Shown here: piece by piece, positions 25,922-37,912 of the stretch | How positions within the stretch are numbered: position 1 is the stretch's first letter | How the letters are laid out: every line of letters begins with the position of its first letter | Origin: a bacterium | Lineage (GTDB): Bacteria; Patescibacteriota; Microgenomatia; UBA1400; PJMF01 | DNA: 48,817 nt | Direction of reading: 5' to 3' | Assembly: GCA_030539095.1 (NCBI GenBank) | Contig: JAUNST010000002.1 | Location: forward strand, 1 to 48,817 | Notes under the pieces: model-generated | Told to the model about the DNA's origin: nothing | Database searches by the model: none | The model's input: the letters and a program-made list of their open reading frames with translations, nothing else | Made by a program: the position numbers and the translations under genes

Positions 25922-26010
25922 TGGCGGAGATGAGGGGAGTCGAACCCCTGAAGCTCTTGCGAGACTCACGCTTTCCAAGCGTGTGCAATTGACCACTATG
26001 CGACATCTCC
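25922..26010 (-). tRNA. tRNA-Ser (anticodon GGA), CCA encoded
   Basis: GGAGATG...CACGC-TTGGAAA-GCGTG-(long variable arm)-AGGGG-TTCGACT-CCCCT-CATCTCC-GCCA. Confidence 0.9.
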
Positions 26011-26096
26011 ACTCGGATTTTTTATTATAACAGAAATCGTCACAGAAGCAGTGGCGATTTCTTTTTTTCCTCTAGTAAGTTTTTTTCGTTGCCGTT

Positions 26097-26113
26097 CGCA
26101 GACCGCTGAGGTC
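26097..26113 (+). repeat. attL core (cgcagaccgctgaggtc)
   Basis: Exact 17-nt match to 36220-36236. Confidence 0.7.
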
Positions 26114-26134
26114 GTCGCCCACGGAAAGGAACCT

Positions 26135-26377
26135 ATGTTCTCCACTCGTTTTCGCTCTTGCCCAATTGAGCTCAAAGAAAGCGTGCCCAATTATAATCAG
26201 GCACTTATTTATTTAAGTGCGGAAATTCAAAAAGCTTATGGCTTTTTTCTCTACCAAAGTATTTACAATCTGCAAAGAGATCATGGGCTCACTAATCAAG
26301 ATATTATTAAAGCTTTTGGTTTTACGCGTCAGAACTTGAGTAAATTGGCTAAAAAGTACCGGCACTATTTTGTTTAA
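26135..26377 (+). CDS. Small HTH protein (regulator or excisionase candidate)
   Basis: 80 aa from ATG 26135 (aaagga SD). The ORF-track start 26051 would span attL. C-terminal HTH-like LTNQDIIKAFGFTRQNLSKLAKK. Confidence 0.55.
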   Translation: MFSTRFRSCPIELKESVPNYNQALIYLSAEIQKAYGFFLYQSIYNLQRDHGLTNQDIIKAFGFTRQNLSKLAKKYRHYFV

Positions 26378-26380
26378 TTT

Positions 26381-26557
26381 ATGCCAGCAGTTTTACCGCT
26401 TTTGCGGGCTTTATGCCGGAAGATTGAACGTTCACAAAGAAAACAGTTGAAACGAATTAATCGCGCGCGCGAGCGCGCGCAACAGCCGCTTTTTCCTACT
26501 TGGCAAGATTATCAATTGTGGACGCAAATACGCTTGTATAAAGAAAAACAGCGTTAA
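26381..26557 (+). CDS. Small basic hypothetical protein (58 aa; below the ORF-track cutoff)
   Basis: ATG lies 3 nt after the previous stop, and its own stop lies 3 nt before the next ATG. Both junctions share the same ttaatttatg sequence. Confidence 0.4.
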   Translation: MPAVLPLLRALCRKIERSQRKQLKRINRARERAQQPLFPTWQDYQLWTQIRLYKEKQR

Positions 26558-26560
26558 TTT

Positions 26561-26995
26561 ATGCGTGTGAATAAAAGCGGCTGGATCAAGCTTTACCGGC
26601 AATTGCTTCTAAGTGACCTTTGGCAAGATAAACCTTTTGCTCGCGGTCAAGCTTGGGTCGATTTACTTTTACTCTACGACAAAAACGCTAACCGTTTACA
26701 AATTAGCCAGCGAGAATTAAGTCGTCGGTGGGGCTGGAGCCTAACTAAAGTGCGAAATTTTTTGGCAGAATTGCAAGAGCATCAAGATTTAGAACTCATG
26801 CAAGAACAAAAAAAGACCACTCTTTTGCTGGCTAAATACCGCTTTTTTCAAGAAATTGCTTACACAAAAAAATCATTAGCGAGCGCAGTTAACTGGCAAA
26901 AACCAGAGGCATTAAAGAATAAGCAAGAAAAAGAAAAAAACAGCGCTTTGATTAGTAATCAAGCGCTGCTAGACTTTTGGGAAAAACAACGATGA
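26561..26995 (+). CDS. Winged-helix DNA-binding protein, replisome-organiser/replication-initiator-like
   Basis: N-terminus GWIKLYRQLLLSDLWQDKPFARGQAWVDLLLL...ISQRELSRRWGWSLTKVRNFLAELQ resembles phage replication-organiser N-termini. This is my recollection of that family, not a search result. Confidence 0.4.
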   Translation: MRVNKSGWIKLYRQLLLSDLWQDKPFARGQAWVDLLLLYDKNANRLQISQRELSRRWGWSLTKVRNFLAELQEHQDLELMQEQKKTTLLLAKYRFFQEIAYTKKSLASAVNWQKPEALKNKQEKEKNSALISNQALLDFWEKQR

Positions 26996-27309
26996 CCAGT
27001 GCTTGTTTAACTTGGGAAAAAACCAAAAAATTTTACTTGGAGGCTTGGCAAGCTGGTCAATTGGAAACCGTAATTTTGCAACAAGCGCAAACTTATTACG
27101 GTAGTCTGGCTAAAATGACTGCTAGTGGGCAATTGCATCAAGCTGGAAACTTTTTAGTCATGCAATTGCCCACTGCGAACCCAGATTTTAGTTTAACTCT
27201 ATTTGTCCATCGTTACCGATCAGAGTTATCTTATTTAAATTTGTTAAATCGTTCGCAAAATCTGATTTTTCGTTTACCACCTCTTAAGTCAAAAACCACT
27301 ACTGGTTGA
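26992..27309 (+). CDS. Hypothetical protein
   Basis: 105 aa; ATGA overlap with the upstream gene. Confidence 0.5.
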   Translation: MTSACLTWEKTKKFYLEAWQAGQLETVILQQAQTYYGSLAKMTASGQLHQAGNFLVMQLPTANPDFSLTLFVHRYRSELSYLNLLNRSQNLIFRLPPLKSKTTTG

Positions 27310-27310
27310 C

Positions 27311-27655
27311 CTAACTAAAAAAGACGTCTTGAATTAATTTGCTAGTTTTATTATCAAAATGATCCAAGCAACGAGTGGCGTGAATAATTTTTTGCAAAGC
27401 ACGCTTTTTGATTCTTTGTACGGTCGCCCGCGAAACAGCTATTTCATCAGCGATTTGTCCTTCAGTGTGGTCAAGGTAATAATTTTTACTAATCACTTCA
27501 GATTCTTCTTGAGACATCTGAAGAGCGGCACATAACTGACCAGTGATGCCTGGATTGCAAAGACGCAAACGCTCTTTGACAATTTTTTCTTCTAACATAT
27601 ACAAAATTAAAGAATGAACACATTTTAGAACGGTTTTTTCAAGATTTTGCTTCAA
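27311..27655 (-). CDS. Sigma-70 region-4-like HTH protein
   Basis: ...SEVISKNYYLDHTEGQIADEIAVSRATVQRIKKRALQKI matches the region-4 pattern. Confidence 0.55.
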   Translation of the reverse strand: MKQNLEKTVLKCVHSLILYMLEEKIVKERLRLCNPGITGQLCAALQMSQEESEVISKNYYLDHTEGQIADEIAVSRATVQRIKKRALQKIIHATRCLDHFDNKTSKLIQDVFFS

Positions 27656-27728
27656 TAAAGGCTCACCTTTTACCAGAGGAAAGGCTCTTTTTTTACATTG
27701 GCTGATAATTTTTACTCAAGAAAAAAGC

Positions 27729-27917
27729 TTATGGCTTTTCCAGACTGTTTTTGCTGCCTAGATTAATCGAAAAGTAGGCACTAGCCATGGAGATAGTGAA
27801 CATCCACCAGTCATCTGCGGTTAAAAAACCGCGCAAAACTAAGATAAAACCTAGAATTACTGGAATCAGCCACGCCAAAAATTTGCGGCTTAATAATTTA
27901 TGACCGATTTCGAGCAT
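27729..27917 (-). CDS. Small two-TM membrane protein (holin-like)
   Basis: 62 aa with two hydrophobic helices, directly downstream of the fibre gene. Confidence 0.4.
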   Translation of the reverse strand: MLEIGHKLLSRKFLAWLIPVILGFILVLRGFLTADDWWMFTISMASAYFSINLGSKNSLEKP

Positions 27918-27938
27918 CTGTTGAGACTTTCTAGCGCC

Positions 27939-28775
27939 TTATTCCTGGCGACCACCGAGATAAAGCCGAAAACCAGCGTTGCACTTTTCAATCATGTAGG
28001 TGGTCGCCTTGTTGGGCAAATTATTAGGCTCTAAATCGCTATTCATGCTCAGAAAACTGCTATTAAAAGTTAAATTGCGGTTGCCGACATTGTCTTGAAC
28101 AAAAATAAACGCTAGCCAATCCCCGATTTCCATATTAGTTGGTAGATTAAGGGTGAAATCTTGATTAGCTGTCACTTCTAGTTGATCGCTTAAACTTCCG
28201 TCTGGCGTCGTGCTGGCGCTATCGGTGATAATTGTGACTGCTCTGGGCGTTTTTAAGTAGGCGCGCCGGCGTTTATCAGTAATTTTCTCATTCAGAATCG
28301 CCGTGGCTCCAGCAGCAACTTCGATGACCGCTAATTTTTCAAAAGGGAAAAGCGTGCCTAAGGCCGTTTGAATTTCCGCGTCGGTGAGCTCCACTGGCGA
28401 AGCCGCTGGTGTACCAGCTAAAATCGCTAACTTAGCTACGTCTTTGCCTTCATTATCTTCGTCTGGCTGAGCATTTAAATCTAGATAAAGCACCACTGTA
28501 TCCAGGCGTGGATTAGAAGTGGCATTACTGCTAACGGTTAAAGTTTCCACGGCATCGCTGATAACCGGATAAGCATTGCCGCCGGTACTGTTTTTAAGAT
28601 AAGCGCGACCAGCTTGGACACTCACGCCCAAACTGCTAGGATTATTTTCTTCCACGGCAAAGTTGCTGCCGCTAAGTTTAATCATTCCGCCAGAGCGGAC
28701 TGCGTCGGTGAGTTGTGCGAGAACGGTTTTTTCTGGATGATTAGCGACTCCGGTGCGCATGGTATAAATTGACAT
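27939..28775 (-). CDS. Tail fibre / receptor-binding protein candidate
   Basis: 278 aa, the last large gene of the tail module. N-terminal part (...GRAYLKN...NPRLDTVVLYLD) resembles phage minor structural proteins. Confidence 0.5.
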   Translation of the reverse strand: MSIYTMRTGVANHPEKTVLAQLTDAVRSGGMIKLSGSNFAVEENNPSSLGVSVQAGRAYLKNSTGGNAYPVISDAVETLTVSSNATSNPRLDTVVLYLDLNAQPDEDNEGKDVAKLAILAGTPAASPVELTDAEIQTALGTLFPFEKLAVIEVAAGATAILNEKITDKRRRAYLKTPRAVTIITDSASTTPDGSLSDQLEVTANQDFTLNLPTNMEIGDWLAFIFVQDNVGNRNLTFNSSFLSMNSDLEPNNLPNKATTYMIEKCNAGFRLYLGGRQE

Positions 28776-28787
28776 AAAAACTTTCTT

Positions 28788-29885
28788 TTAATTATTTTCT
28801 AATCTTTCCAAACGTCGTAAAATTTCGCGGTAGTCTTGCAAGAAATCCTCGCTCGCTTGTTGCGGATTGAGAGTGAGATCAAGTAAGCAAGTTCCGTCTT
28901 TGTAAGTAAGCGTGCGCTTGCTTAGGCGCAACATTTGATCGAGATCAAGTTCGCGCAAGCGCAAGCGCACGCGATCGCCCACCTCATAACTTTGCCAGTC
29001 TGGCGCATTACCGAGCACGCTCAAAGTAATTTGATTATTACTGAGCGGAAAAGCGTTTTCCGCTAAATAAGTGGCTGCTCGTTCTGCCAAGCTGGCTTCG
29101 GTAGTTAAATCAGTGGCACTTAAATAACTTTCTTGTTTTCCCCAAGCCGTAATAGCATTTTGATCGGCAAAAGTATAACTGGCATTATTGCCTTTACCTT
29201 TAATTCGCACTTGATTCACTAAGTTGCCTAAAAGTCCTAGGCGACTTTGAAAACTCAAAATGTTTTGTTCGTCAAAAATAATGCCTGGTTGATCACTGCC
29301 AAGACGCGGATAAGCTAAATTTAATTGCCAATTCGCATTAAATTGCCAATCAAAACCATTGGCAATTTTATTAGCACTTAAACCGACTAAAGCGTCTAGG
29401 ACGCGCGCATTTTTAAAAGCGCGCGTCACTGTTACAGCGGTCTGACTAACTTCGCCCATGGTTAAACCTAAATCGGCACCGGCTTGGGCTTGAGTTAATA
29501 AATCCTCTGCCACCGTCATTAAATTAACATCGGTGTAATTTTGGCTGACGCCAGTTAAGCGCTTGCTAAGCAAGCTGCTCGCATCCGCAAAACTCAAGTC
29601 TAAACTTACGTCGTTTTGATCGCCATTCAAATTGGCGCTCGTCAACACACCTTTAAACAAAATGGTTTCTTTTACTTCATCATAAATGATAATTTTGCGC
29701 CAATTATCAAAAAGTAGTTGCCGCACCGTCTGCTGATTATTCTTTGCCACTTCGCGCAATAATACATACGGCACGCTTATTTGTCCCGATTCACCAAGGT
29801 TTAATGTCGTAGTCCAGCTAAACTGACTAAAAGGTAACCACCATTTTTGCGTTTCTTGCTTGTTGAGTAAATAAAGACTGAGCAT
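28788..29885 (-). CDS. Tail-associated hub protein (Tal / Sipho_Gp37-like)
   Basis: 365 aa, positioned after Dit. Pattern ...NGFDWQF...IIFDEQNI...VRIKGKG...GDRVRLRL typical of siphovirus Gp37-like proteins (from memory). Confidence 0.55.
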   Translation of the reverse strand: MLSLYLLNKQETQKWWLPFSQFSWTTTLNLGESGQISVPYVLLREVAKNNQQTVRQLLFDNWRKIIIYDEVKETILFKGVLTSANLNGDQNDVSLDLSFADASSLLSKRLTGVSQNYTDVNLMTVAEDLLTQAQAGADLGLTMGEVSQTAVTVTRAFKNARVLDALVGLSANKIANGFDWQFNANWQLNLAYPRLGSDQPGIIFDEQNILSFQSRLGLLGNLVNQVRIKGKGNNASYTFADQNAITAWGKQESYLSATDLTTEASLAERAATYLAENAFPLSNNQITLSVLGNAPDWQSYEVGDRVRLRLRELDLDQMLRLSKRTLTYKDGTCLLDLTLNPQQASEDFLQDYREILRRLERLENN

Positions 29886-29886
29886 T

Positions 29887-30729
29887 TTAAATTCCTAAAT
29901 AAGCGTCGTTATAGGCTAAAGTGGCGCTGCTAGCGGTAGTGGTGTCGTTGGCAGCAAAAAGAACATTGTTGCTGCCAGGAGCCACCGTCCACCATTGGCC
30001 AGAAATCGTCGGTAAAATATTGGTATTTTGTTTTAAAATAGCTGTCCGTTGATAAAAATCCAACACCAAAGTGTCGCCAGCACTTAAAGCCTGGCTACAT
30101 TGCAAACGTTGCGTTCTAGTTTGGTTAAGTAAAATAAATCCGTTCACCGGGCCAACGATGGTCGCCTGTAAATGGCTATAAGCATTGCCGGAGTTGGTTA
30201 ATTGAGTATACATTTCGCTGCTGGCGTTTAAATTCATGGCAGCCGGAACACTCATGGGAATTTGCAAACCGCCTAAATTAGCGATGCTGAGAGTGGCGCT
30301 TTTACTAGCGCCGAGTAAATACGATTTTTCCGTTTGAATTTGGATAAGAAACTCGCTTTTATTGACGTCGGCGGCGGCCATGGAATTTTGAATTGCCAAC
30401 ACTGCCGCCTTGCAAGTTAATTGCTGATTGTTATTGAGAACAAAAGTAAAAGTTTTCTGATCACTTTCGCTGCTGCCTGGATCAATGCTAAGTAAACTCA
30501 GAAAACGCTGTTTCTCAGCGGCGTTATTATCACCATTGGCAGTGATAATAACGCCAAAACTAATTACTAGGCTGCGGTAGCAAGCTTTGCCTAAAGCCAC
30601 GCCTTCGCCGCCGGCGCGGGCGTAACTGGCCACTTCAATCGTCGGACTGCCGGCGCCGTCGAGACTACTAATAAAACGGGTGCCGCTAATATTGACGCTG
30701 GTACCGTTAATGAGAATATTGCTGATCAT
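29887..30729 (-). CDS. Distal tail protein (Dit, Sipho_tail-like)
   Basis: ...LTNSGNAYSHLQATIVGPVNGFILLNQT...LSAGDTLVLDF is typical of Dit. ATG 30729 has an aaagga SD, so it is preferred to 30771. Confidence 0.6.
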   Translation of the reverse strand: MISNILINGTSVNISGTRFISSLDGAGSPTIEVASYARAGGEGVALGKACYRSLVISFGVIITANGDNNAAEKQRFLSLLSIDPGSSESDQKTFTFVLNNNQQLTCKAAVLAIQNSMAAADVNKSEFLIQIQTEKSYLLGASKSATLSIANLGGLQIPMSVPAAMNLNASSEMYTQLTNSGNAYSHLQATIVGPVNGFILLNQTRTQRLQCSQALSAGDTLVLDFYQRTAILKQNTNILPTISGQWWTVAPGSNNVLFAANDTTTASSATLAYNDAYLGI

Positions 30730-30743
30730 AATTCTGTTTTCCT

Positions 30744-31703
30744 TTAATAGCTCGGACTGCCGGCGAGCCAACCTAAACGTTGGATTAATGCTTCTAGTTG
30801 CTCGCTGCGATTAACAGTGGCGTTAACAGTAATCTGTGCCTGATTATTGCGATTTACAATTGTATTTGGCACAGCTTGCTGACCGCTAAGCATAGCCTTG
30901 GAAAGAACAAACTCGCCGGCGTGCACCAAAGCTAAACCAGTTTTCGGCACGTAACCGCCATTTTGAAATTTGGGAATTTGCCAATTGAGATCGAGACCAA
31001 TTTTGCCACCAACTTCGTTGACAAAAGCCAAGAGGCTATTAATTTTATCTATGACTCCGTTTACCAAGCCACTCACATAATTAATAATGTTGGCTGCCCC
31101 AGACTGGCAAACGCTACTTAAACCTTGCCAAAGTCCTCGCCAGAGTGCCGTGGCCAAATTGCCAAAAACAGTTAAACTATTGCCCAGAATGGTTAAAAGT
31201 TCACTCACGGCGGCGATCATCGTGGTGGCGGAAAAATCGCAATCAGCGATTAAAATTTCCCATTGACTATTGATAAAAGCCAAAAGCTGCGGCAATATTT
31301 CTTGTAAACTGAGGAGCAAATTGCCTACACCACCGGTGAAACTAACAAAAAGCGCATCTAAAGTTTGGGTAAAATGAGCACAAGTTTCGTCGAGTTGTTG
31401 CAAATATGGCGTAGCTACTTGAGTTGCCACTGGCAAATCTTCTTGTAAAAATTTCAAGAAGATTTGCGTGTTCCCTTGAAAATTTTCATCAGCAAAAACG
31501 TTTTGCAAGCCAACAAACGGACCTTTTAGATCTAAATCGGCTACTACTTGGCTTAAATTTTCTAATTTTTTTTGATATAAACCAACTGCTTGTGTCAAAT
31601 TAGTAATTTCTTTTTGATCAAGCGCCAGAAGTTGGTTATATTCTGCTTCGTCAGCAGTTAAATAACGTTCACCATAGCGTAATTCATTCGCAGTCATTGA
31701 CAT
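30744..31703 (-). CDS. Short tape measure protein
   Basis: 319 aa, helical N-terminal half, Gly/Leu-rich hydrophobic middle, C-terminal ...GGYVPKTGLALVHAGEFVLSKAM. Sits immediately upstream of Dit, with the chaperone gene further upstream across the 31704-32446 interruption. Confidence 0.6.
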   Translation of the reverse strand: MSMTANELRYGERYLTADEAEYNQLLALDQKEITNLTQAVGLYQKKLENLSQVVADLDLKGPFVGLQNVFADENFQGNTQIFLKFLQEDLPVATQVATPYLQQLDETCAHFTQTLDALFVSFTGGVGNLLLSLQEILPQLLAFINSQWEILIADCDFSATTMIAAVSELLTILGNSLTVFGNLATALWRGLWQGLSSVCQSGAANIINYVSGLVNGVIDKINSLLAFVNEVGGKIGLDLNWQIPKFQNGGYVPKTGLALVHAGEFVLSKAMLSGQQAVPNTIVNRNNQAQITVNATVNRSEQLEALIQRLGWLAGSPSY

Positions 31704-31828
31704 AAATACCTTTACCTATTTCAGATGATTTATTTTCTATTTTTATTGATCGGTTTTTATACATTGCTGCTTTTTTGCGGCTATCTTTATGCTAAAATGA
31801 ATTTTGGATTTATCTGTACTCGAGAGCA

Positions 31829-32158
31829 ATGGAAAAAACTAAGCGCAAATTAAGACGCCGTTTTTCGCAATTATCATTAGCTCAAGCGGCTAGAGTTTGT
31901 GAAAAACTTGGTTCACCAAAATTAGAAAAGGCAATCGTTTTAGACACTTATTGCCGATCTTTGGGCGAACAAAATTTAATTGAAAAACATCAAATCTCGC
32001 GGGCGACGCTCACTAGAGAAAGACAAACTTTCTGGCGCCGTGTGGACGCAGCCTTATTCGTACAAGATATTTTGCCGCCAGATGTTTACGATATCTTAAT
32101 TAAGGTTTTCTTAATTTTGATGACGATGTTTATGTGTAAATTGTCGGTTGCTATGTAG
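31829..32158 (+). CDS. HTH (sigma region-4-like) protein encoded antisense to the tail genes
   Basis: 109 aa; ...AIVLDTYCRSLGEQNLIEKHQISRATLTRERQTFWRRV. Confidence 0.5.
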   Translation: MEKTKRKLRRRFSQLSLAQAARVCEKLGSPKLEKAIVLDTYCRSLGEQNLIEKHQISRATLTRERQTFWRRVDAALFVQDILPPDVYDILIKVFLILMTMFMCKLSVAM

Positions 32159-32160
32159 TT

Positions 32161-32192
32161 GCATTTTTTCAACCGGGAAAACTTGAGCCTTT
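32161..32192. repeat. Motif copy c1 (TTTTTC-N6-GAAAACTTGAGCCTTT)
   Basis: gcattttttcaaccgggaaaacttgagccttt. 25 of 32 nt identical to c2. Confidence 0.7.
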
Positions 32193-32267
32193 AAACTTAA
32201 AAAGGTAGTTTACATCTGGAAAAAGCAAAAATAAATTAATTTTAGATTGATTGAAAGCACATAAAAT

Positions 32268-32299
32268 GCACTTTTTCGAGTGAGAAAACTTGAGCCTTT
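32268..32299. repeat. Motif copy c2
   Basis: gcactttttcgagtgagaaaacttgagccttt. Confidence 0.7.
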
Positions 32300-32392
32300 G
32301 TGCGGCTAAAACTTTTCTAATTAGGTTGATAATATTAAAGCTGTTCAACTAAGTACTGATAAATGGCTAAAGTGGCTTGGACAGTCGGAAAG

Positions 32393-32426
32393 GAGACCTG
32401 CCAAACATAGGCGGCGGGTCTCTTTT
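32393..32426. terminator. Hairpin terminator (possibly bidirectional) after the G/GT gene
   Basis: gagacctgcc (32393-32402) pairs with ggcgggtctc (32413-32422) with one G-U pair. tttt follows on the + strand and ctttcc on the - strand. Confidence 0.5.
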
Positions 32427-32446
32427 CAGTTAGCGCCGATTTAGGT

Positions 32447-32988
32447 TCATTTTTTCTGACGTTGGCAATCTCGCTCGGCTTTGTTTTTAATGCGTCGATA
32501 AAAAAGCATTTGTTGAATCCAGGCTTCTGGCTGAGCTAGGAGTTCCCAATAAGTGAGATGAAAAGTGTCGCATAAAAAACAAATTTCCAGATCTGGAGGT
32601 AAAGACGAGTCACTTTCACCGCGCAAAAAGCGGTAAAGTGGCTCTTCTAAACTTTTGGGACACTACTGCTGGCGGCTAAAAGCTGATTAACTGCGGCGAA
32701 AATTTTTTCGCCGTCTTGAGCGGGCAAATCAAAAATCTGTTCCAAAATTTCTTCTGGTTGAGTGTAACTTTGCCCGCCTATTTGTAGTTCTTGAATTAGG
32801 CTTTTAGCCGCCAGGTCTTGCGCCTCAAGCACCACGGTGCCAGGCACGCCAACCGTGGTTGGCGTGCCATTGGCGTTAATTTCGCTGCCGCTCAAGTAGA
32901 GTTTTTGTAACTCATGCTTGAGGCGCATGGAAACGAAATCCTTCAACAGTGCCTTATTGCCGGAATTTAGATCAACCGTGATACTCAT
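32447..32988 (-). CDS. Tail assembly chaperone G-T fusion made by -1 programmed frameshift
   Basis: Slippery heptamer C-CCA-AAA (plus-strand coordinates 32653-32659) lies 1 codon before the TAG. The -1 frame stays open for about 69 more codons, to TGA at 32449-32447. Confidence 0.6.
32647..32988 (-). CDS. Tail assembly chaperone (gpG-like)
   Basis: 113 aa, acidic, between the tube gene and the tape measure gene. Carries the slippery site at its 3' end. Confidence 0.65.
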   Translation of the reverse strand: MSITVDLNSGNKALLKDFVSMRLKHELQKLYLSGSEINANGTPTTVGVPGTVVLEAQDLAAKSLIQELQIGGQSYTQPEEILEQIFDLPAQDGEKIFAAVNQLLAASSSVPKV

Positions 32989-32989
32989 T

Positions 32990-33949
32990 TTAGCTAGCGT
33001 AACTACTAATTTGATTAATTAAGGTCAATTCGAAAAGAGTTTGCGTACTAGCATCCAAAGTGGCCACAAATTCCACTTCTAAACGAGCCGCTTCAGCGTT
33101 AATCGGATTGAGCAAAGCACTAAAATAGGCCTTTGGAAGGCTCAATTTCAGGCTTTCTTTGTTCACGTTGGTTCCGGAGAGACTGTCACCGTTAAAGGTG
33201 ATTTCTAAGGCTTTAGCGGCCTTGTCTAAATAGGCTTCGTAAAAACTTATCTGGTTGCTATCATTCAAATAGAGCACAAATTTGCCTTTTACCTCATAAC
33301 GACCGCTAGCAAAGCCTTGTGGATTCACATTGCCCAAACCGTATTGAGCTTGTTTATTGCTGATAATCTCCACTTCAAAGTTGGAAACCAGCGGTAAACT
33401 GGTATTATCAACTTTGAGACCAGCTGCCACGTCGGCATGAGTAAAAGTGTGTCCTAGATTGTAAGTGACAGTGGCAGCGCTGTTTACGTCTTCTACCACG
33501 CTCCTGCCGAGCAGACCATAAGTGGCTAAGATACTTCCTCCTGGCTCGGCAGTGATTTTCGCCGAGTTCACTAAAACACCGGCGTAACGCACCGGAAAAG
33601 TATCATTGTATTGCTCGATGGTGAAACTGGCTTTATTGCCTGTGGGCAAAAACTGATGTTCATAAATGCCAGTTTCGCCAGTGACAGCGGTGGTGGTAAC
33701 CGTACCACACAAACTGCGCCAGAAGTAACCAGCCGCCTGACTATCTAAGTCGGTCTCAATTTCGCCTTCATGCGTCACTAAACCTTGGTAATAGTCGCTG
33801 TAAGCGCTTAAACTGCCGTCAAAAACTTCTTGACCGCGCAAATCGACCAAAGTTTTCATGCCTTCGCCAGCTCGAATTGGCAAACCCTTTGTCGGCGCCA
33901 CCGCTGTACCAAGTGTGCTTTCTAAACCAAAACTAAAATGTTTACTCAT
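32990..33949 (-). CDS. Major tail (tube) protein
   Basis: 319 aa. The assignment is mainly by synteny: it lies immediately upstream of the frameshifting chaperone gene. Confidence 0.55.
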   Translation of the reverse strand: MSKHFSFGLESTLGTAVAPTKGLPIRAGEGMKTLVDLRGQEVFDGSLSAYSDYYQGLVTHEGEIETDLDSQAAGYFWRSLCGTVTTTAVTGETGIYEHQFLPTGNKASFTIEQYNDTFPVRYAGVLVNSAKITAEPGGSILATYGLLGRSVVEDVNSAATVTYNLGHTFTHADVAAGLKVDNTSLPLVSNFEVEIISNKQAQYGLGNVNPQGFASGRYEVKGKFVLYLNDSNQISFYEAYLDKAAKALEITFNGDSLSGTNVNKESLKLSLPKAYFSALLNPINAEAARLEVEFVATLDASTQTLFELTLINQISSYAS

Positions 33950-34091
33950 TTTGTCCTTTCACCTTAATAATTAATGGATGTTCCAACTCGAGGCTACAAA
34001 AGAATTCTTGGCCATAACGCAAAAAATAACTTTGACCGGTTTCTGTCCGCAAAACTAAGGGAAAAGATCCTATGTATCGGTATTTATTCAT
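33942..34091 (-). CDS. Small hypothetical protein (49 aa; below the ORF-track cutoff)
   Basis: ATG lies 1 nt after the upstream stop, and its own stop overlaps the tube-gene ATG. Confidence 0.4.
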   Translation of the reverse strand: MNKYRYIGSFPLVLRTETGQSYFLRYGQEFFCSLELEHPLIIKVKGQNE

Positions 34092-34092
34092 A

Positions 34093-34524
34093 TTAGCTCC
34101 GGACATTTTGATTAATTAAAAAAGTTAATTCCAATTTATAAACAGGAATAGGATTGTCTGAGCTATACTCGAGAGATGCTTCGCTAGTACTGCTCTGAGC
34201 CGCCCAACTGACGCCACTGCCCAAAGTAGTAGCTCCCTCAAGAGTATTGAGAATCGTCCAAACAGTGCTGCGGCAATTAGTTTCCCAGGCGCTCAAATCA
34301 GTAGCAGAATTAAAATAACAAACTTCAAAAGTGATGGCACGTTGATTACGGGCTAAATCCAGATAATAACTTTGATGCTTAGCCAGATTAATGGTCACTG
34401 TGGGGCCGCTCAGAGCGCTTAAATCCACTCTGGAGCCGCTGACGGTGACGCCGCTTAAGGCGTTTGTAAGTAAATTAACTAAAATAGTGACTAAGTCATT
34501 AAGCATAATTTTGATTGTAGGCAT
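34093..34524 (-). CDS. Tail terminator / tail completion-like protein
   Basis: 143 aa from ATG 34524. It is the first gene of the tail operon, upstream of the tube gene. The call is positional only. Confidence 0.4.
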   Translation of the reverse strand: MPTIKIMLNDLVTILVNLLTNALSGVTVSGSRVDLSALSGPTVTINLAKHQSYYLDLARNQRAITFEVCYFNSATDLSAWETNCRSTVWTILNTLEGATTLGSGVSWAAQSSTSEASLEYSSDNPIPVYKLELTFLINQNVRS

Positions 34525-34548
34525 TTTTTGCTCTTGTTTTATATATTT

Positions 34549-34586
34549 TAGCAATACTTGCAAATTATTGCTAAGAGTGCTAAAAT
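34549..34586 (+). promoter_or_regulatory. Promoter TTGCAA-N17-(TGc)TAAAAT overlapped by the inverted repeat TAGCAATA-N9-TATTGCTA
   Basis: -35 at 34558-34563, -10 at 34581-34586, inverted-repeat arms at 34549-34556 and 34566-34573. Lies in the divergent region between the tail operon and the 34594 gene. Confidence 0.5.
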
Positions 34587-34593
34587 TAGGCTT

Positions 34594-35253
34594 ATGTTTG
34601 TGCGCACTCCAGATAATCGCCTACTTTTTCAAAATGGCAGATTGGAGTGCGAAATTCTACCCTATTTTAGCCAAAGCCGGCTTTTTCAACTTAAAAAAGA
34701 ACTCCTTTTACTGGAACAAGTTTATTTTTGTGAAGTTTTTGGTAATTGCCCTTTTATTTTTTTATCGCCAGAGGAATATCGTGTTTTAAGTTTGAAAAAG
34801 CGCTATTTTTCTCACGCTGCTATTGCCAAAACTTTGCGTTTATCGCTCACACAGGTGGAAAAATTAGTCCAGATTTTGCAACAAAAGTATCAACTCTGGG
34901 CGCATGACGAAAATTTTAAATTACATCCAGATCTGGATTTAGTAAAAATACGAGTGACGGAAATGAATTTTTCCGATTTGTTAACTGGCGAGCAGCTGGA
35001 AGAACTTAACGAAATCTTGCCTGGAGATAACGGTCAAGAGAGTAAAAACCAGTGGAGCAAAATCGCTACTGCCGATATTCTCAATCTTTTAACCAGTGTT
35101 CAGAAACAGACGGCGATTTTGCTTGAACAAGGTTATTCTCCAGAGGAAATTGGCGCGCGCCTGGGCGTCAGCACACAAGAAGTTTATCAGAAAATTGCTA
35201 GAATGCGCGCGCGCCTGCAAAAAGCCGGTTACGGCCCAAAAGCTAAGCAGTAA
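34594..35253 (+). CDS. Protein with two sigma-region-4/LuxR-like HTH modules
   Basis: LSPEEYRVLSLKKRYFSHAAIAKTLRLSLTQVEKLV and LTSVQKQTAILLEQGYSPEEIGARLGVSTQEVYQKIARMRARL. ATG 34594 is preferred to TTG 34558. Confidence 0.6.
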   Translation: MFVRTPDNRLLFQNGRLECEILPYFSQSRLFQLKKELLLLEQVYFCEVFGNCPFIFLSPEEYRVLSLKKRYFSHAAIAKTLRLSLTQVEKLVQILQQKYQLWAHDENFKLHPDLDLVKIRVTEMNFSDLLTGEQLEELNEILPGDNGQESKNQWSKIATADILNLLTSVQKQTAILLEQGYSPEEIGARLGVSTQEVYQKIARMRARLQKAGYGPKAKQ

Positions 35254-36058
35254 AATGGTGATAAGGATGTACGGCTGCCGCTTCTCGCATAAAATCCACT
35301 GATTGATCAAGATAATGCATGGTCGTGGTAATTCTAGAATGTCGCAGCAACCTTTGCATGTATTGAATCGGAACCTTGCCAGAAGCAATCCCAATCGTAG
35401 CAAAAGTATGACGAAAACTATGCGGAGTAATGTGTTTATCACAATGCATTAAACGTAGGCGAAGTTGGCAATCTTTTTCGACTGTTCTCAAGGAAAGCGG
35501 TCGCGGGCCACCATTAAAAGAAAACGCAAACGGGCCATTTTGGGCACGCAGATACGGCAAAATTTCTTCCTTTACCCAGGCAAAAAGAATAATTGGCTTG
35601 CCGTCGTTAGTTTTGGTATTTTGCGGATAAAAACAATTATTGTCTAGATCAAAATCGTTAAGTTGCAGCCTGGCTACTTCTGACGGTCGTGTGCCAGAGA
35701 AACAATGAAGCAACCAAAAGGCGTCTAACACCGGATTAGTTTTTAAATTCACAAATTCTTTAAGCTCGTTTTCGTTTAGAGTTGGTTTATGTTTGGGAAA
35801 ACAACGAAATTTCTTTAGATCATGATACCAATTCTCTTGAGTAAAAAGACACCACCAACGAGCAACTTTTAAATATTTATTCAATGTTTCCGCCTGGGTG
35901 CCGCTTCTTTGTTTGCTTAAACAAAACTTTTTTAAGGCGAGAGCCGATTCTAGATTATTCCCTAAATATTTCGCTAACCGCGCATACTCTAAACAAGTGT
36001 TTTCTTTGAGGCAATTTTGCGTTCGCAGGAAAAACAAGAAATCCAAACTTGTTTTCAT
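35243..36058 (-). CDS. int: Tyrosine recombinase / phage integrase
   Basis: SGTRPSEVARL (Arg I), HSFRHTFAT (H-x-x-R) and LLRHSRITTTMHYL (catalytic Tyr). Confidence 0.9.
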   Translation of the reverse strand: MKTSLDFLFFLRTQNCLKENTCLEYARLAKYLGNNLESALALKKFCLSKQRSGTQAETLNKYLKVARWWCLFTQENWYHDLKKFRCFPKHKPTLNENELKEFVNLKTNPVLDAFWLLHCFSGTRPSEVARLQLNDFDLDNNCFYPQNTKTNDGKPIILFAWVKEEILPYLRAQNGPFAFSFNGGPRPLSLRTVEKDCQLRLRLMHCDKHITPHSFRHTFATIGIASGKVPIQYMQRLLRHSRITTTMHYLDQSVDFMREAAAVHPYHHFTA

Positions 36059-36138
36059 ACTTCTGTTCTTACCAGCCGCTTTTTAGCCTATTCTGATATG
36101 ATATGTTATATTTAGTAAAAAAGTTATTTAACAAAAAT

Positions 36139-36160
36139 CAAGTTTTCTCGAGTGAAAAAC
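36139..36160. repeat. Motif copy c3 (inverted relative to c1/c2)
   Basis: The reverse complement of caagttttctcgagtgaaaaac is gtttttcactcgagaaaacttg, which matches TTTTTC-N6-GAAAACTTG. Confidence 0.6.
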
Positions 36161-36166
36161 TGCTGC

Positions 36167-36195
36167 TTGACAACTAATACAAAATATGTTAAAAA
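36167..36195 (+). promoter_or_regulatory. Outward-facing promoter-like element TTGACA-N17-(TGt)TAAAAA pointing across attR
   Basis: TTGACA at 36167-36172 and TAAAAA at 36190-36195, with TG at 36187-36188. Confidence 0.35.
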
Positions 36196-36214
36196 TAGGT
36201 ATAACTATTAAAAA

Positions 36215-37912
36215 CTACGCGCAGACCGCTGAGGTCTGCGAACGTATAATTTTTTCCAGACTTTCTTGATCGAGTCCAAGCGTTTTTAGCTGTTCGCTGC
36301 GCGAAGCCTGAGCAATAAATTCGTCTGGAATAGCCTGAATCAGTAATTGCGGTCGATTTTTCGCTGGTCGGTTGGCTAAAAGCGTGGCAATTTGTTGCCC
36401 GACGCCGCCAATTAAGGCATTTTCTTCCACTACTAAAACTTTTTTATAGTTAGCAAAAATTTGCTCGAGAAATTTTTCTGGCAACGGTTTAACAATTGGC
36501 AAATGAAAGTGGGCAAAATCCAAATCTGGATTTTCTATCGCTTCGACAGTACCTTTGCAAAAACCAGTCGTAATAACTGCCAATTGTTGGCTTTGACTAT
36601 AGCGGAATTGCCGAGGTGTTAATTTTCCACCTGGTAGCGGCAAAGCAAATTTTTCTCCTGGCGGGAAGCAAAGTTTGGGATAGCAAATTGCCACTGGTTT
36701 TTTCGCCACGCGGGCCAGCTCTAAACTTTGCTGCAATTCTGGCAAATCGCCAGGCATCAAAATTTGCAAATTAGGAATTAGATTGAGAAAAGAAAAAGCT
36801 AGCGTGCCTTGATGAGTGGCGCCATCTTCGCCAACTAAGCCAGCTCGATCAACTAAGAGCGCCACTGGCACTTCGCCAATCGCTACATCGTGAATAATTT
36901 GGTCAAAAGCTCTTTGCAAAAAACTCGCATAAAAATGACAAAACGGTTTTTTGCCCGCCAAAGCTAAGCCGGCACTCAAGCCAAGAGCATGACTTTCAGC
37001 GATGCCAACGTCAAAAAATCTCTCTGGAAATTTTTGCACAAAAGGCATTAAGCCAGCACTTTGCTGCATCGCCGCGCTAATCACTTGCACTCGTTCGTCT
37101 TTTTCGCCCAAACTAACCAAAGCTTGACCGACGAAATCGTGCAATTTAGCTCGATTTTGTTGGCGCGATTTGGCAGCTGGATAAAAGTGACTAGCAACTG
37201 GGTTTTGACTCGCCAAATCGCAACCATGACCTTTTTGCGTTTTAATATGCAGCACTCGCGGGCCACTCTGTGACTGCAATTTTTGCAAAGTTTCAATTAA
37301 CAATGGTAAATTATGCCCGTCTATCGGCCCTGTATACGGCAAGCCGAAACTTTGCAAAAATTGCTGGTAGCGCTGGCCGTCGGCAATTGCGCCGGCGCAT
37401 TTATCAATTGAATATTGATTATCATTCACAATTACCAAAATGTTTTGCTTGGTAGTCGCTAAATGATTAAGCGCCTCCACTGCCATGCCGTTTAAAAGCG
37501 ATCCATCGCCAATTATAGCGATACAGCAATGTTTTTTATCTTTATAGCTCAAACCCAAAGCCAAAGAAATCGAATTACCGGCATGGCCAGTTACACACGG
37601 ATCACATTTGCTTTCGCCAGGATTCATAAAACCGCTTAAACCGTTTTTTTGTCTTAAAGTGGCGAAAGCAGCCGGTCTATCCGTCAAAAGCTTATGAGTA
37701 TAACTTTGATGACCGACGTCAAAAATAAAGCGATCTTTTTCCGGTTCAAAAACTTGGTGCAAAGCCAAAGTCAGCTCCACTGTACCTAAACTGCCGCTTA
37801 AATGACCGCCGTTTCTTTCGCAAGTGGCTAAAATTTCTTGACGTAAATTTGTTGCTAAAGTTTGTAATTGTGCCAAAGTCAACTGTTTAAACATTTTTTG
37901 CTTCATGTTCAA
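36215..37912 (-). CDS. dxs: 1-deoxy-D-xylulose-5-phosphate synthase (short form)
   Basis: GGHLSGSLGTVELTLALH...DVGHQSYTHKLLT, a TPP-binding GDG...N motif and transketolase-like C-terminal domains. Confidence 0.8.
   Translation of the reverse strand: MNMKQKMFKQLTLAQLQTLATNLRQEILATCERNGGHLSGSLGTVELTLALHQVFEPEKDRFIFDVGHQSYTHKLLTDRPAAFATLRQKNGLSGFMNPGESKCDPCVTGHAGNSISLALGLSYKDKKHCCIAIIGDGSLLNGMAVEALNHLATTKQNILVIVNDNQYSIDKCAGAIADGQRYQQFLQSFGLPYTGPIDGHNLPLLIETLQKLQSQSGPRVLHIKTQKGHGCDLASQNPVASHFYPAAKSRQQNRAKLHDFVGQALVSLGEKDERVQVISAAMQQSAGLMPFVQKFPERFFDVGIAESHALGLSAGLALAGKKPFCHFYASFLQRAFDQIIHDVAIGEVPVALLVDRAGLVGEDGATHQGTLAFSFLNLIPNLQILMPGDLPELQQSLELARVAKKPVAICYPKLCFPPGEKFALPLPGGKLTPRQFRYSQSQQLAVITTGFCKGTVEAIENPDLDFAHFHLPIVKPLPEKFLEQIFANYKKVLVVEENALIGGVGQQIATLLANRPAKNRPQLLIQAIPDEFIAQASRSEQLKTLGLDQESLEKIIRSQTSAVCA
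36220..36236 (+). repeat. attR core (cgcagaccgctgaggtc)
   Basis: Exact match to 26097-26113. Embedded in the palindrome cgcagacc-gctga-ggtctgcg inside the last codons of dxs. Confidence 0.7.

Follow-up and report, generated by a model that had tools for sequence, protein, structure and literature searches.

Candidate attachment sites of a tail-encoding integrative element at the 3' end of dxs in a bacterium with a 0.8-Mb genome

Core sites of tyrosine recombinases include those of lambda attB (C-O-C', or B-O-B'), Xer/dif (11-6-11) and Cre/loxP (13-8-13). In these, two inverted arms that bind the recombinase enclose a short asymmetric centre, which must be the same in both recombining partners; the hybrid junctions share this centre, and the enzyme has an R-K-HxxR-H-Y active site. 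Two further systems are of interest for the locus described here. Phage 21 and e14 integrate into the 3' end of the E. coli icd gene and supply a substitute end, and in the excised, circular form of Tn916 transcription from promoters crosses the joint.

Our window, i.e., the whole stretch of 48,817 nt that was analysed, belongs to a genome of 800,313 bases in 59 contigs (96% complete; G000 in the comparisons below). The 17-mer CGCAGACCGCTGAGGTC occurs in it at 26097-26113 and 36220-36236, both times on the + strand and so in direct orientation. We consider it very probable that these copies mark the attL and attR sites of a 10.1-kb integrative element (26105-36232, core to core), which would have been inserted by its own Xer-like tyrosine recombinase into the last codons of dxs. 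The putative target is a dif-like palindrome of roughly 29 bp in those codons. The direct repeats bracket a block that encodes a recombinase, the boundaries that could be compared among relatives coincide with the repeats, and the centre is identical in both junctions and covaries between elements. The locus is thus like the classical core sites in its inverted arms, its short asymmetric centre shared by the hybrid junctions, and the active site of its enzyme. An att pair is in itself textbook biology, and the tail-only cargo in a small-genome lineage is the more unusual object. With these sites, the limits of a compact, integrase-bearing, tail-encoding and head-less element in a poorly studied lineage with 0.8-Mb genomes are precisely defined.

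The initial annotation had stated that the 17-mer is found exactly twice in the window and had put the chance of such an exact pair below about 0.1, and both statements hold. There is no further copy in the window even when two mismatches are allowed, the whole genome contains the same two copies only (at up to two mismatches), and two matches to CGCAGACCGCTGAGGTC were obtained in 0/100 dinucleotide shuffles. Analytically, ~0.07 exact direct pairs of a 17-mer are expected. Shuffling the window by a first-order Markov model yields 0.3 exact direct repeats of at least 17 nt, of any composition, and the length of the repeat alone is therefore only mildly improbable; the case for att sites is carried by placement and comparative data, and not by repeat length. 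This Markov value would leave room for the repeat to be a chance or structural duplicate of a GC-rich terminator-hairpin word that has nothing to do with element boundaries, the more so as the word is one half of a hairpin that resembles a dxs terminator. We regard such an origin as extremely improbable, because there are only two copies in 0.8 Mb, these bracket the integrase block exactly, five independent relatives are bracketed likewise by repeats of their own, and an element-free congener (G071) has no similar hairpin after dxs.

The attL site (B-O-P'; 26093-26120, + strand) reads cgttcgcagacc-gctga-ggtcgtcgccc, and is composed of an outer, chromosomal arm CGTTCGCAGACC (26093-26104), the centre GCTGA (26105-26109) and an inner, element arm GGTCGTCGCCC (26110-26120). 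In attR (P-O-B'; 36217-36244, + strand; acgcgcagacc-gctga-ggtctgcgaacg) the order is reversed, with the inner arm ACGCGCAGACC (36217-36227) followed by the centre GCTGA (36228-36232) and the outer arm GGTCTGCGAACG (36233-36244), and the site falls within the last 9 codons of dxs. As had been noticed at first reading, the outer flanks join into a perfect palindrome, CGTTCGCAGACC GCTGA GGTCTGCGAACG, in which the reverse complement of the first 12 nt equals the last 12. This is a 12-5-12 arrangement around a non-palindromic centre (equivalently 11-7-11). The reciprocal product of the inner halves is, again as described, an imperfect version, with arms that match at 7 of 11 positions. The reconstructed empty attB, with the tRNA-Ser side joined to dxs, is CGTTCGCAGACCGCTGAGGTCTGCGAACG, and the reconstructed circular attP junction, with 36219 joined to 26114, is ACGCGCAGACCGCTGAGGTCGTCGCCC. 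Neither an empty site nor a circle was seen in the searches described below, and the palindromic attB is therefore a reconstruction. All four arms of attB and attP are near-identical over 9-12 bp (consensus TTCGCAGACC), as in Xer/dif or loxP and unlike the core-plus-arm-site organisation of lambda; no arm-binding domain and no arm-type sites were identified in the window's element. In form, the architecture is closest to Xer/dif or Cre/loxP.

The minimal core, defined as the stretch common to the direct repeats of six elements, is the 9-nt CCGCTGAGG (26103-26111 in attL and 36226-36234 in attR, + strand). It is common to both sites of the window's element, and it is asymmetric, i.e., it differs from its own reverse complement. 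With an asymmetric centre in direct orientation, recombination would therefore excise a circle and not invert the segment. The two sites also form a 26-nt inverted pair (81% complementarity), so that the quasi-palindromic ends might be taken for terminal inverted repeats that serve in transposition or DNA inversion. We find this very unlikely, given that the predicted outcome is deletion, that no transposase or invertase was recognised in the element, where the tyrosine integrase is the sole recombinase, and that the block faces the same way with respect to dxs in all carriers.

For the att sites as we understand them, recombinase dimers would bind the TTCGCAGACC-like arms that flank the centre of attB and of attP, and strand exchange would take place within CCGCTGAGG. 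This would leave hybrid sites that contain the centre together with the arm bases that attP and attB had in common, and the reverse reaction would release a circle. The 5-nt centre need not be the overlap region; the comparison of relatives only confines strand exchange to the 9 nt of CCGCTGAGG. With an intact enzyme, matched sites and matched centres, excision may plausibly still occur today. Excision and integration themselves, the precise points of cleavage and the way in which direction is controlled are points that we infer; no excisionase was identified in the element.

The integrase gene (35243-36058, - strand) encodes a Xer-like tyrosine recombinase of 271 aa (PF00589) without an arm-binding domain. 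The initial annotation had placed it about 160 bp inside attR, and the measured distance between the start of the reading frame and the attR core is 161 bp. The protein matches Pfam PF00589 over residues 97-252 with 55.2 bits (cut-off 27.1; 9.6e-15). Its best NCBIfam match is XerA (92 bits, against a cut-off of 220), followed here by XerC (56 bits; cut-off 335) and XerD (39 bits; cut-off 330). Because these scores lie below the equivalog cut-offs, the element-encoded recombinase is Xer-like in architecture and not an orthologue of XerA, XerC or XerD. The genome also holds separate recombinase frames of 295 and 315 aa, which are 26-27% identical to the integrase. The closest solved structure is a XerC-like protein (PDB 4a8e; 6.8e-12). 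Residues R124, K149, H213, R216, H240 and Y249, which make up the R-K-HxxR-H-Y set, are invariant in eight homologues of 37-80% identity and align with the matching motifs of 4a8e. A short recombinase without an extra N-terminal arm-binding domain fits a simple target of two inverted arms, and so small an integrase of the Xer-like type, with a palindrome of 29 bp as its target, could be of use as a simple tool for recombination.

Homologous elements are present in eight other lineages, seven of them in the same 3' end of dxs and one beside a toxin-antitoxin pair, and the gene order of the element is kept in at least eight lineages (L130, L131, L150, L152, L162/L180, L163, L182 and L189). The sister species G069 and G070 have a homologous block between tRNA-Ser and dxs (63-77% nucleotide identity), with tail tubes 68-76% identical to that of the window. 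On metagenome contigs, the integrase homologues at 80, 72, 69 and 61% identity all lie directly after dxs. A homologue at 58% identity, that of the P0010-type element, is not at dxs and stands beside a HigBA-like pair. The P0010-type element (L162/L180) is the most distant member of the family and comes from a Logan contig of 12412 nt (ERR13731071), in which the HigB/HigA-like pair of the right flank is preceded by a terminator-like hairpin.

The left ends of the relatives were recovered via the DnaD-like protein, and the junctions were then aligned in register. Relatives without repeats would speak against the boundaries proposed initially; direct repeats of 9-25 nt flank the element in all five relatives for which both ends were recovered. 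In G000, attL cgttCGCAGACCGCTGAGGTCgtcg and attR tacgCGCAGACCGCTGAGGTCtgcgaacg share 17 nt (in capitals), and in G070, attL cgttcgcagaCCGCTGAGGTCTGCGAAtaaag and attR gtcgcggtCCGCTGAGGTCTGCGAAcgg also share 17 nt, shifted to the right. The shared stretch is 25 nt in the P0007-type (TCGCAGACCGCTGAGGTCTGCGAAC), 17 nt in the P0008-type (GACCGCTGGGGTCTGCG) and at least 19 nt in G069, where the attL side is badly assembled. In the P0010-type it is 9 nt only, CCGCTGGGG, and sequence similar to TTCGCrGyC is seen in all four arms. In the assembly of G069 (contig G069:C2, L130), the attL side has an N gap as well as stretches of G and of C, and the G069 copy of the integrase has one in-frame TAG, which could reflect a pseudogene or an assembly error.

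The repeats of the family slide to the left or right, yet always contain CCGCTG(A/G)GG, and strand exchange must therefore occur within those 9 nt. Position 7 of the core is A in four elements (CCGCTGAGG) and G in two (CCGCTGGGG), and attL equals attR in every element. In attR the central A to G change converts a Ser codon of dxs to Pro, and in attL it is non-coding. The outer arms CGTTCGCAGACC and GGTCTGCGAACG rebuild the same palindrome in G000, G070 and the P0007-type, with inner arms that are element-specific. Constant outer arms and element-specific inner arms are the pattern that would be expected of B-O-P' and P-O-B' hybrids, and with the matched centres they support the attL/attR reading that had been suggested from the window, of which every prediction that could be put to the test was borne out. 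The relatives also offer naturally occurring variants of arms and centre with which the specificity of the recombinase could be probed.

The surroundings of the element differ among its carriers. The attR site is conserved at the 3' end of dxs in seven relatives, and the tRNA-Ser gene beside the element is kept in G069, G070 and the P0007-type. The left neighbour of the P0008-type is instead a LemA gene with an M48 peptidase gene, and in the P0010-type both flanking neighbours differ from those of the window. Similarity of the P0008- and P0010-type elements to the window starts and ends at the cores; since homology ends there in other contexts as well, the element boundaries do not lie elsewhere.

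The closest relative found, L192 (a Logan contig of 6488 nt from SRR8986148), has a dxs gene 88% identical to the window's and carries a remnant of the element. Just 1.2 kb separate tRNA-Ser and dxs, corresponding to 26077-36199 of the window. This remnant is homologous to 27308-27692 and 31764-32426, and homology resumes at 36200. It retains the sigma-region-4 gene (27311-27655 in the window) and an HTH gene with a duplicated motif (31764-32426), and is without the integrase, the tail genes, the replication genes and the outward promoter described below. Its core agrees with the window at 10 of 17 positions and the palindrome is gone, at 73-79% identity in the adjacent dxs. This decay, seen in one lineage and over 17 positions, would fit relaxed constraint after loss of the recombinase.

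Identity to the window ranks alike for integrase (80, 72, 69%) and dxs (77, 60, 55%). This agreement would fit long vertical residence, and taken together the data suggest that the element has long resided in the lineage and is normally integrated. They might also suggest that the sites are fossils of one ancestral integration that was domesticated and no longer recombines, attR being kept as the C-terminus and terminator of dxs and attL surviving by accident or in another role. Such an origin would agree with the parallel ranks of element and host divergence, the single locus shared by all carriers but one, the failure to find an empty site or circle in the searched assemblies, the lengthening of dxs that an empty site would bring, the in-frame TAG in the G069 integrase, and the decay in place in one lineage. 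We nevertheless judge it unlikely. The outer arm and core of attL are conserved within a spacer that is unalignable between species, and the arm is identical in G070 and the P0007-type although the spacer around it cannot be aligned. The A/G centre is matched between attL and attR in each element, a match that purely vertical, non-recombining copies would not maintain. Moreover, the catalytic residues of the integrase are invariant across 37-80% identity, the P0010-type element is at a different locus, and the core decays where the integrase is lost.

The two junctions by which the initial annotation proposed to check these sites, the dxs-to-tRNA-Ser empty site and the circle with 36219 joined to 26114, did not turn up in related genomes and assembled data. 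An unoccupied attB was absent from 140 family genomes, one metagenome scan and the Logan contigs around the flanking genes, and a circular attP junction was absent from the same sets and from IMG/VR. The missing attB reflects a lack of data rather than proven absence, because the species is a singleton in the protein collection: by exact-protein look-up, the window's proteins are singletons among 15 billion proteins, with no strain-level variation there. A scan of a genome collection with the bare CGCAGACCGCTGAGGTC gave at least 119 chance matches in unrelated GC-rich genomes, and the metagenome scan with GACCGCTGAGGTCTGCGAA gave four unrelated matches and no empty site. BLAST of the joined flanks against the 140 family genomes returned tRNA matches only, outside the window's genome and the attR of G069. 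IMG/VR, searched with the tail-tube protein and with a promoter-plus-core pattern, yielded no relatives. Every genome with a palindrome-type dxs tail carries the element or a remnant, so that we can only infer attB.

Two candidates were set aside in the course of these searches. The congener G071, which is without the element, does not represent an empty site, as the 3' end of its dxs differs, another gene follows and synteny differs; its tRNA-Ser stands at a contig end. The 12.4-kb contig of the P0010-type was rejected as a circle, having no terminal overlap. The M48-peptidase contigs of the P0008-type all run into the element or break in a GC-rich stretch before attL, and one of them ends inside the core, before any branch point. 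Several of the contigs L197-L201 (P0008-type, Logan, different samples) break within the GC-rich 60 nt to the left of attL, and one ends in poly-G. These breaks are most likely coverage drop-out, and not a population branch point.

On the left, the chromosomal neighbour of attL is tRNA-Ser(GGA) (25922-26010, - strand; ARAGORN). A terminator-like hairpin with a T-run lies between the two (26032-26062, + strand; from a consensus scan only) and could insulate the left-end genes of the element from read-in transcription. On the right, dxs (36215-37912, - strand; Pfam DXP_synthase_N, Transket_pyr and Transketolase_C), the gene for 1-deoxy-D-xylulose-5-phosphate synthase, runs through attR. The core encodes ...SQTSAV, and the stop codon TAG (36215-36217) is inside the bracketed block. 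In all relatives the stop codon comes 1-9 codons past the core. The element thus carries replacement codons and a stop codon, and dxs therefore stays intact. This is the arrangement of phage 21 and e14 in icd, where the crossover also lies in the coding 3' end and the target remains functional. Unlike in those phages, the replacement amounts to 1-9 codons only and varies between relatives, the target is dxs, the host has a 0.8-Mb genome, and the inserted element has tail genes only. At the reconstructed empty sites, dxs would gain a read-through tail of 35-45 residues in 4/4 lineages, and it therefore seems that integration is the normal condition over the long term. Read as a dxs terminator, the attR hairpin with its U-run has a fold of -18.4 kcal/mol (z -3.4), and the U-run comes from the element in this genome. 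By this prediction, the hairpin followed by UAGUUUUU can also serve as the terminator of dxs.

Within the element, the left-end genes (26135-27309, + strand) code for an 80-aa HTH-like protein (26135-26377), a 58-aa ORF, a DnaD-like replication protein (26561-26995; PHROG 186, 1.6e-11) and a 110-aa ORF. A distance of 22 nt separates the core from the first ATG, which has the RBS GGAAAGG, and there is no room for a promoter of their own between the attL core and this ATG. The RBS and ATG directly 3' of attL are kept in five relatives. The cargo (27311-34563, - strand; Pfam and PHROGs) consists of sigma-70 region-4, RBP-like, Tal, Dit, short tape-measure and tail tube genes and small ORFs. Several sigma-70 region-4 or HTH proteins are encoded in the element. 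The tail module is a full, non-contractile one of the siphovirus type, and no capsid, portal, terminase or lysis genes were recognised with Pfam and PHROGs. The tail tube protein has at most a 26%-identity match among 50,697 phage records and none in IMG/VR. Such a head-less, tail-encoding element could be tailocin-like or satellite-like. Reading TGA as Gly was also considered, and lengthens no identified element gene beyond a few codons. An exact direct 18-mer repeat, AAAAAGCTTATGGCTTTT, occurs within the element at 26229-26246 and 27722-27739; one copy is in the first left-end gene and the other is intergenic, upstream of the sigma-region-4 gene.

An outward sigma-70-type promoter (36167-36195, + strand; TTGACA, 17-nt spacer, TAAAAA, with a TG upstream) is directed across the core from a position ~30 nt inward of attR. 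No other promoter match in the region is better, and GCTTGACAA and the -10 box are conserved in 8/8 relatives that keep the right end, despite ~65% overall nucleotide identity. Its predicted transcript through attR forms a hairpin (-17.9 kcal/mol, z -4.4) followed by the U-run. The corresponding transcript through the reconstructed attP folds without a strong hairpin (-13.6 kcal/mol, z -0.7), and the next feature beyond attP is the RBS and ATG of the left-end genes. We give roughly even chances to the proposal that the promoter would be blocked by the attR hairpin and U-run when the element is integrated, and that after circularisation it would read across attP into the left-end replication genes. 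As in Tn916, a putative promoter faces outward at one end, promoter-less genes begin ~22 nt from the other, and only the circle brings the two together. Unlike in Tn916, the genes served would be those for replication and an HTH protein, and not those for conjugation, and in the off state transcription would be terminated by the attR hairpin and U-run.

An operator-like near-palindrome, TCAAGTTTTCTCGAGTGAAAAA (36138-36163, strand not assigned; from a repeat search), abuts the -35 box. Copies of it are also found at 32160-32192 and 32267-32299, and it is present in L150 too; a regulatory role may be presumed. Separately, the region 36059-36166, like its counterpart in relatives, contains a conserved ATCATAnnATATCA box ~30 nt upstream of the integrase start and divergent from the outward promoter. 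The operator-like palindrome sits between this box and the promoter, in a layout that resembles a small genetic switch.

More tentatively, and at less than even odds, the att system may be an excision-coupled genetic switch in a domesticated, tail-only, tailocin- or satellite-like element that has co-diverged with its small-genome clade. In the integrated state, the attR hairpin would terminate the transcripts of both dxs and the outward promoter; on excision, this promoter would be brought, across attP, in front of the promoter-less replication genes. If this were so, selection for the switch, and not horizontal mobility, would explain why the cores are intact wherever the integrase survives, as well as the decay of the core on loss of the integrase and the fact that no empty site was seen.

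At the left end of the window (positions 1-900), a unit of ~230 nt is repeated four times in tandem, at 60-83% identity between copies, and this array probably encodes a repetitive protein.
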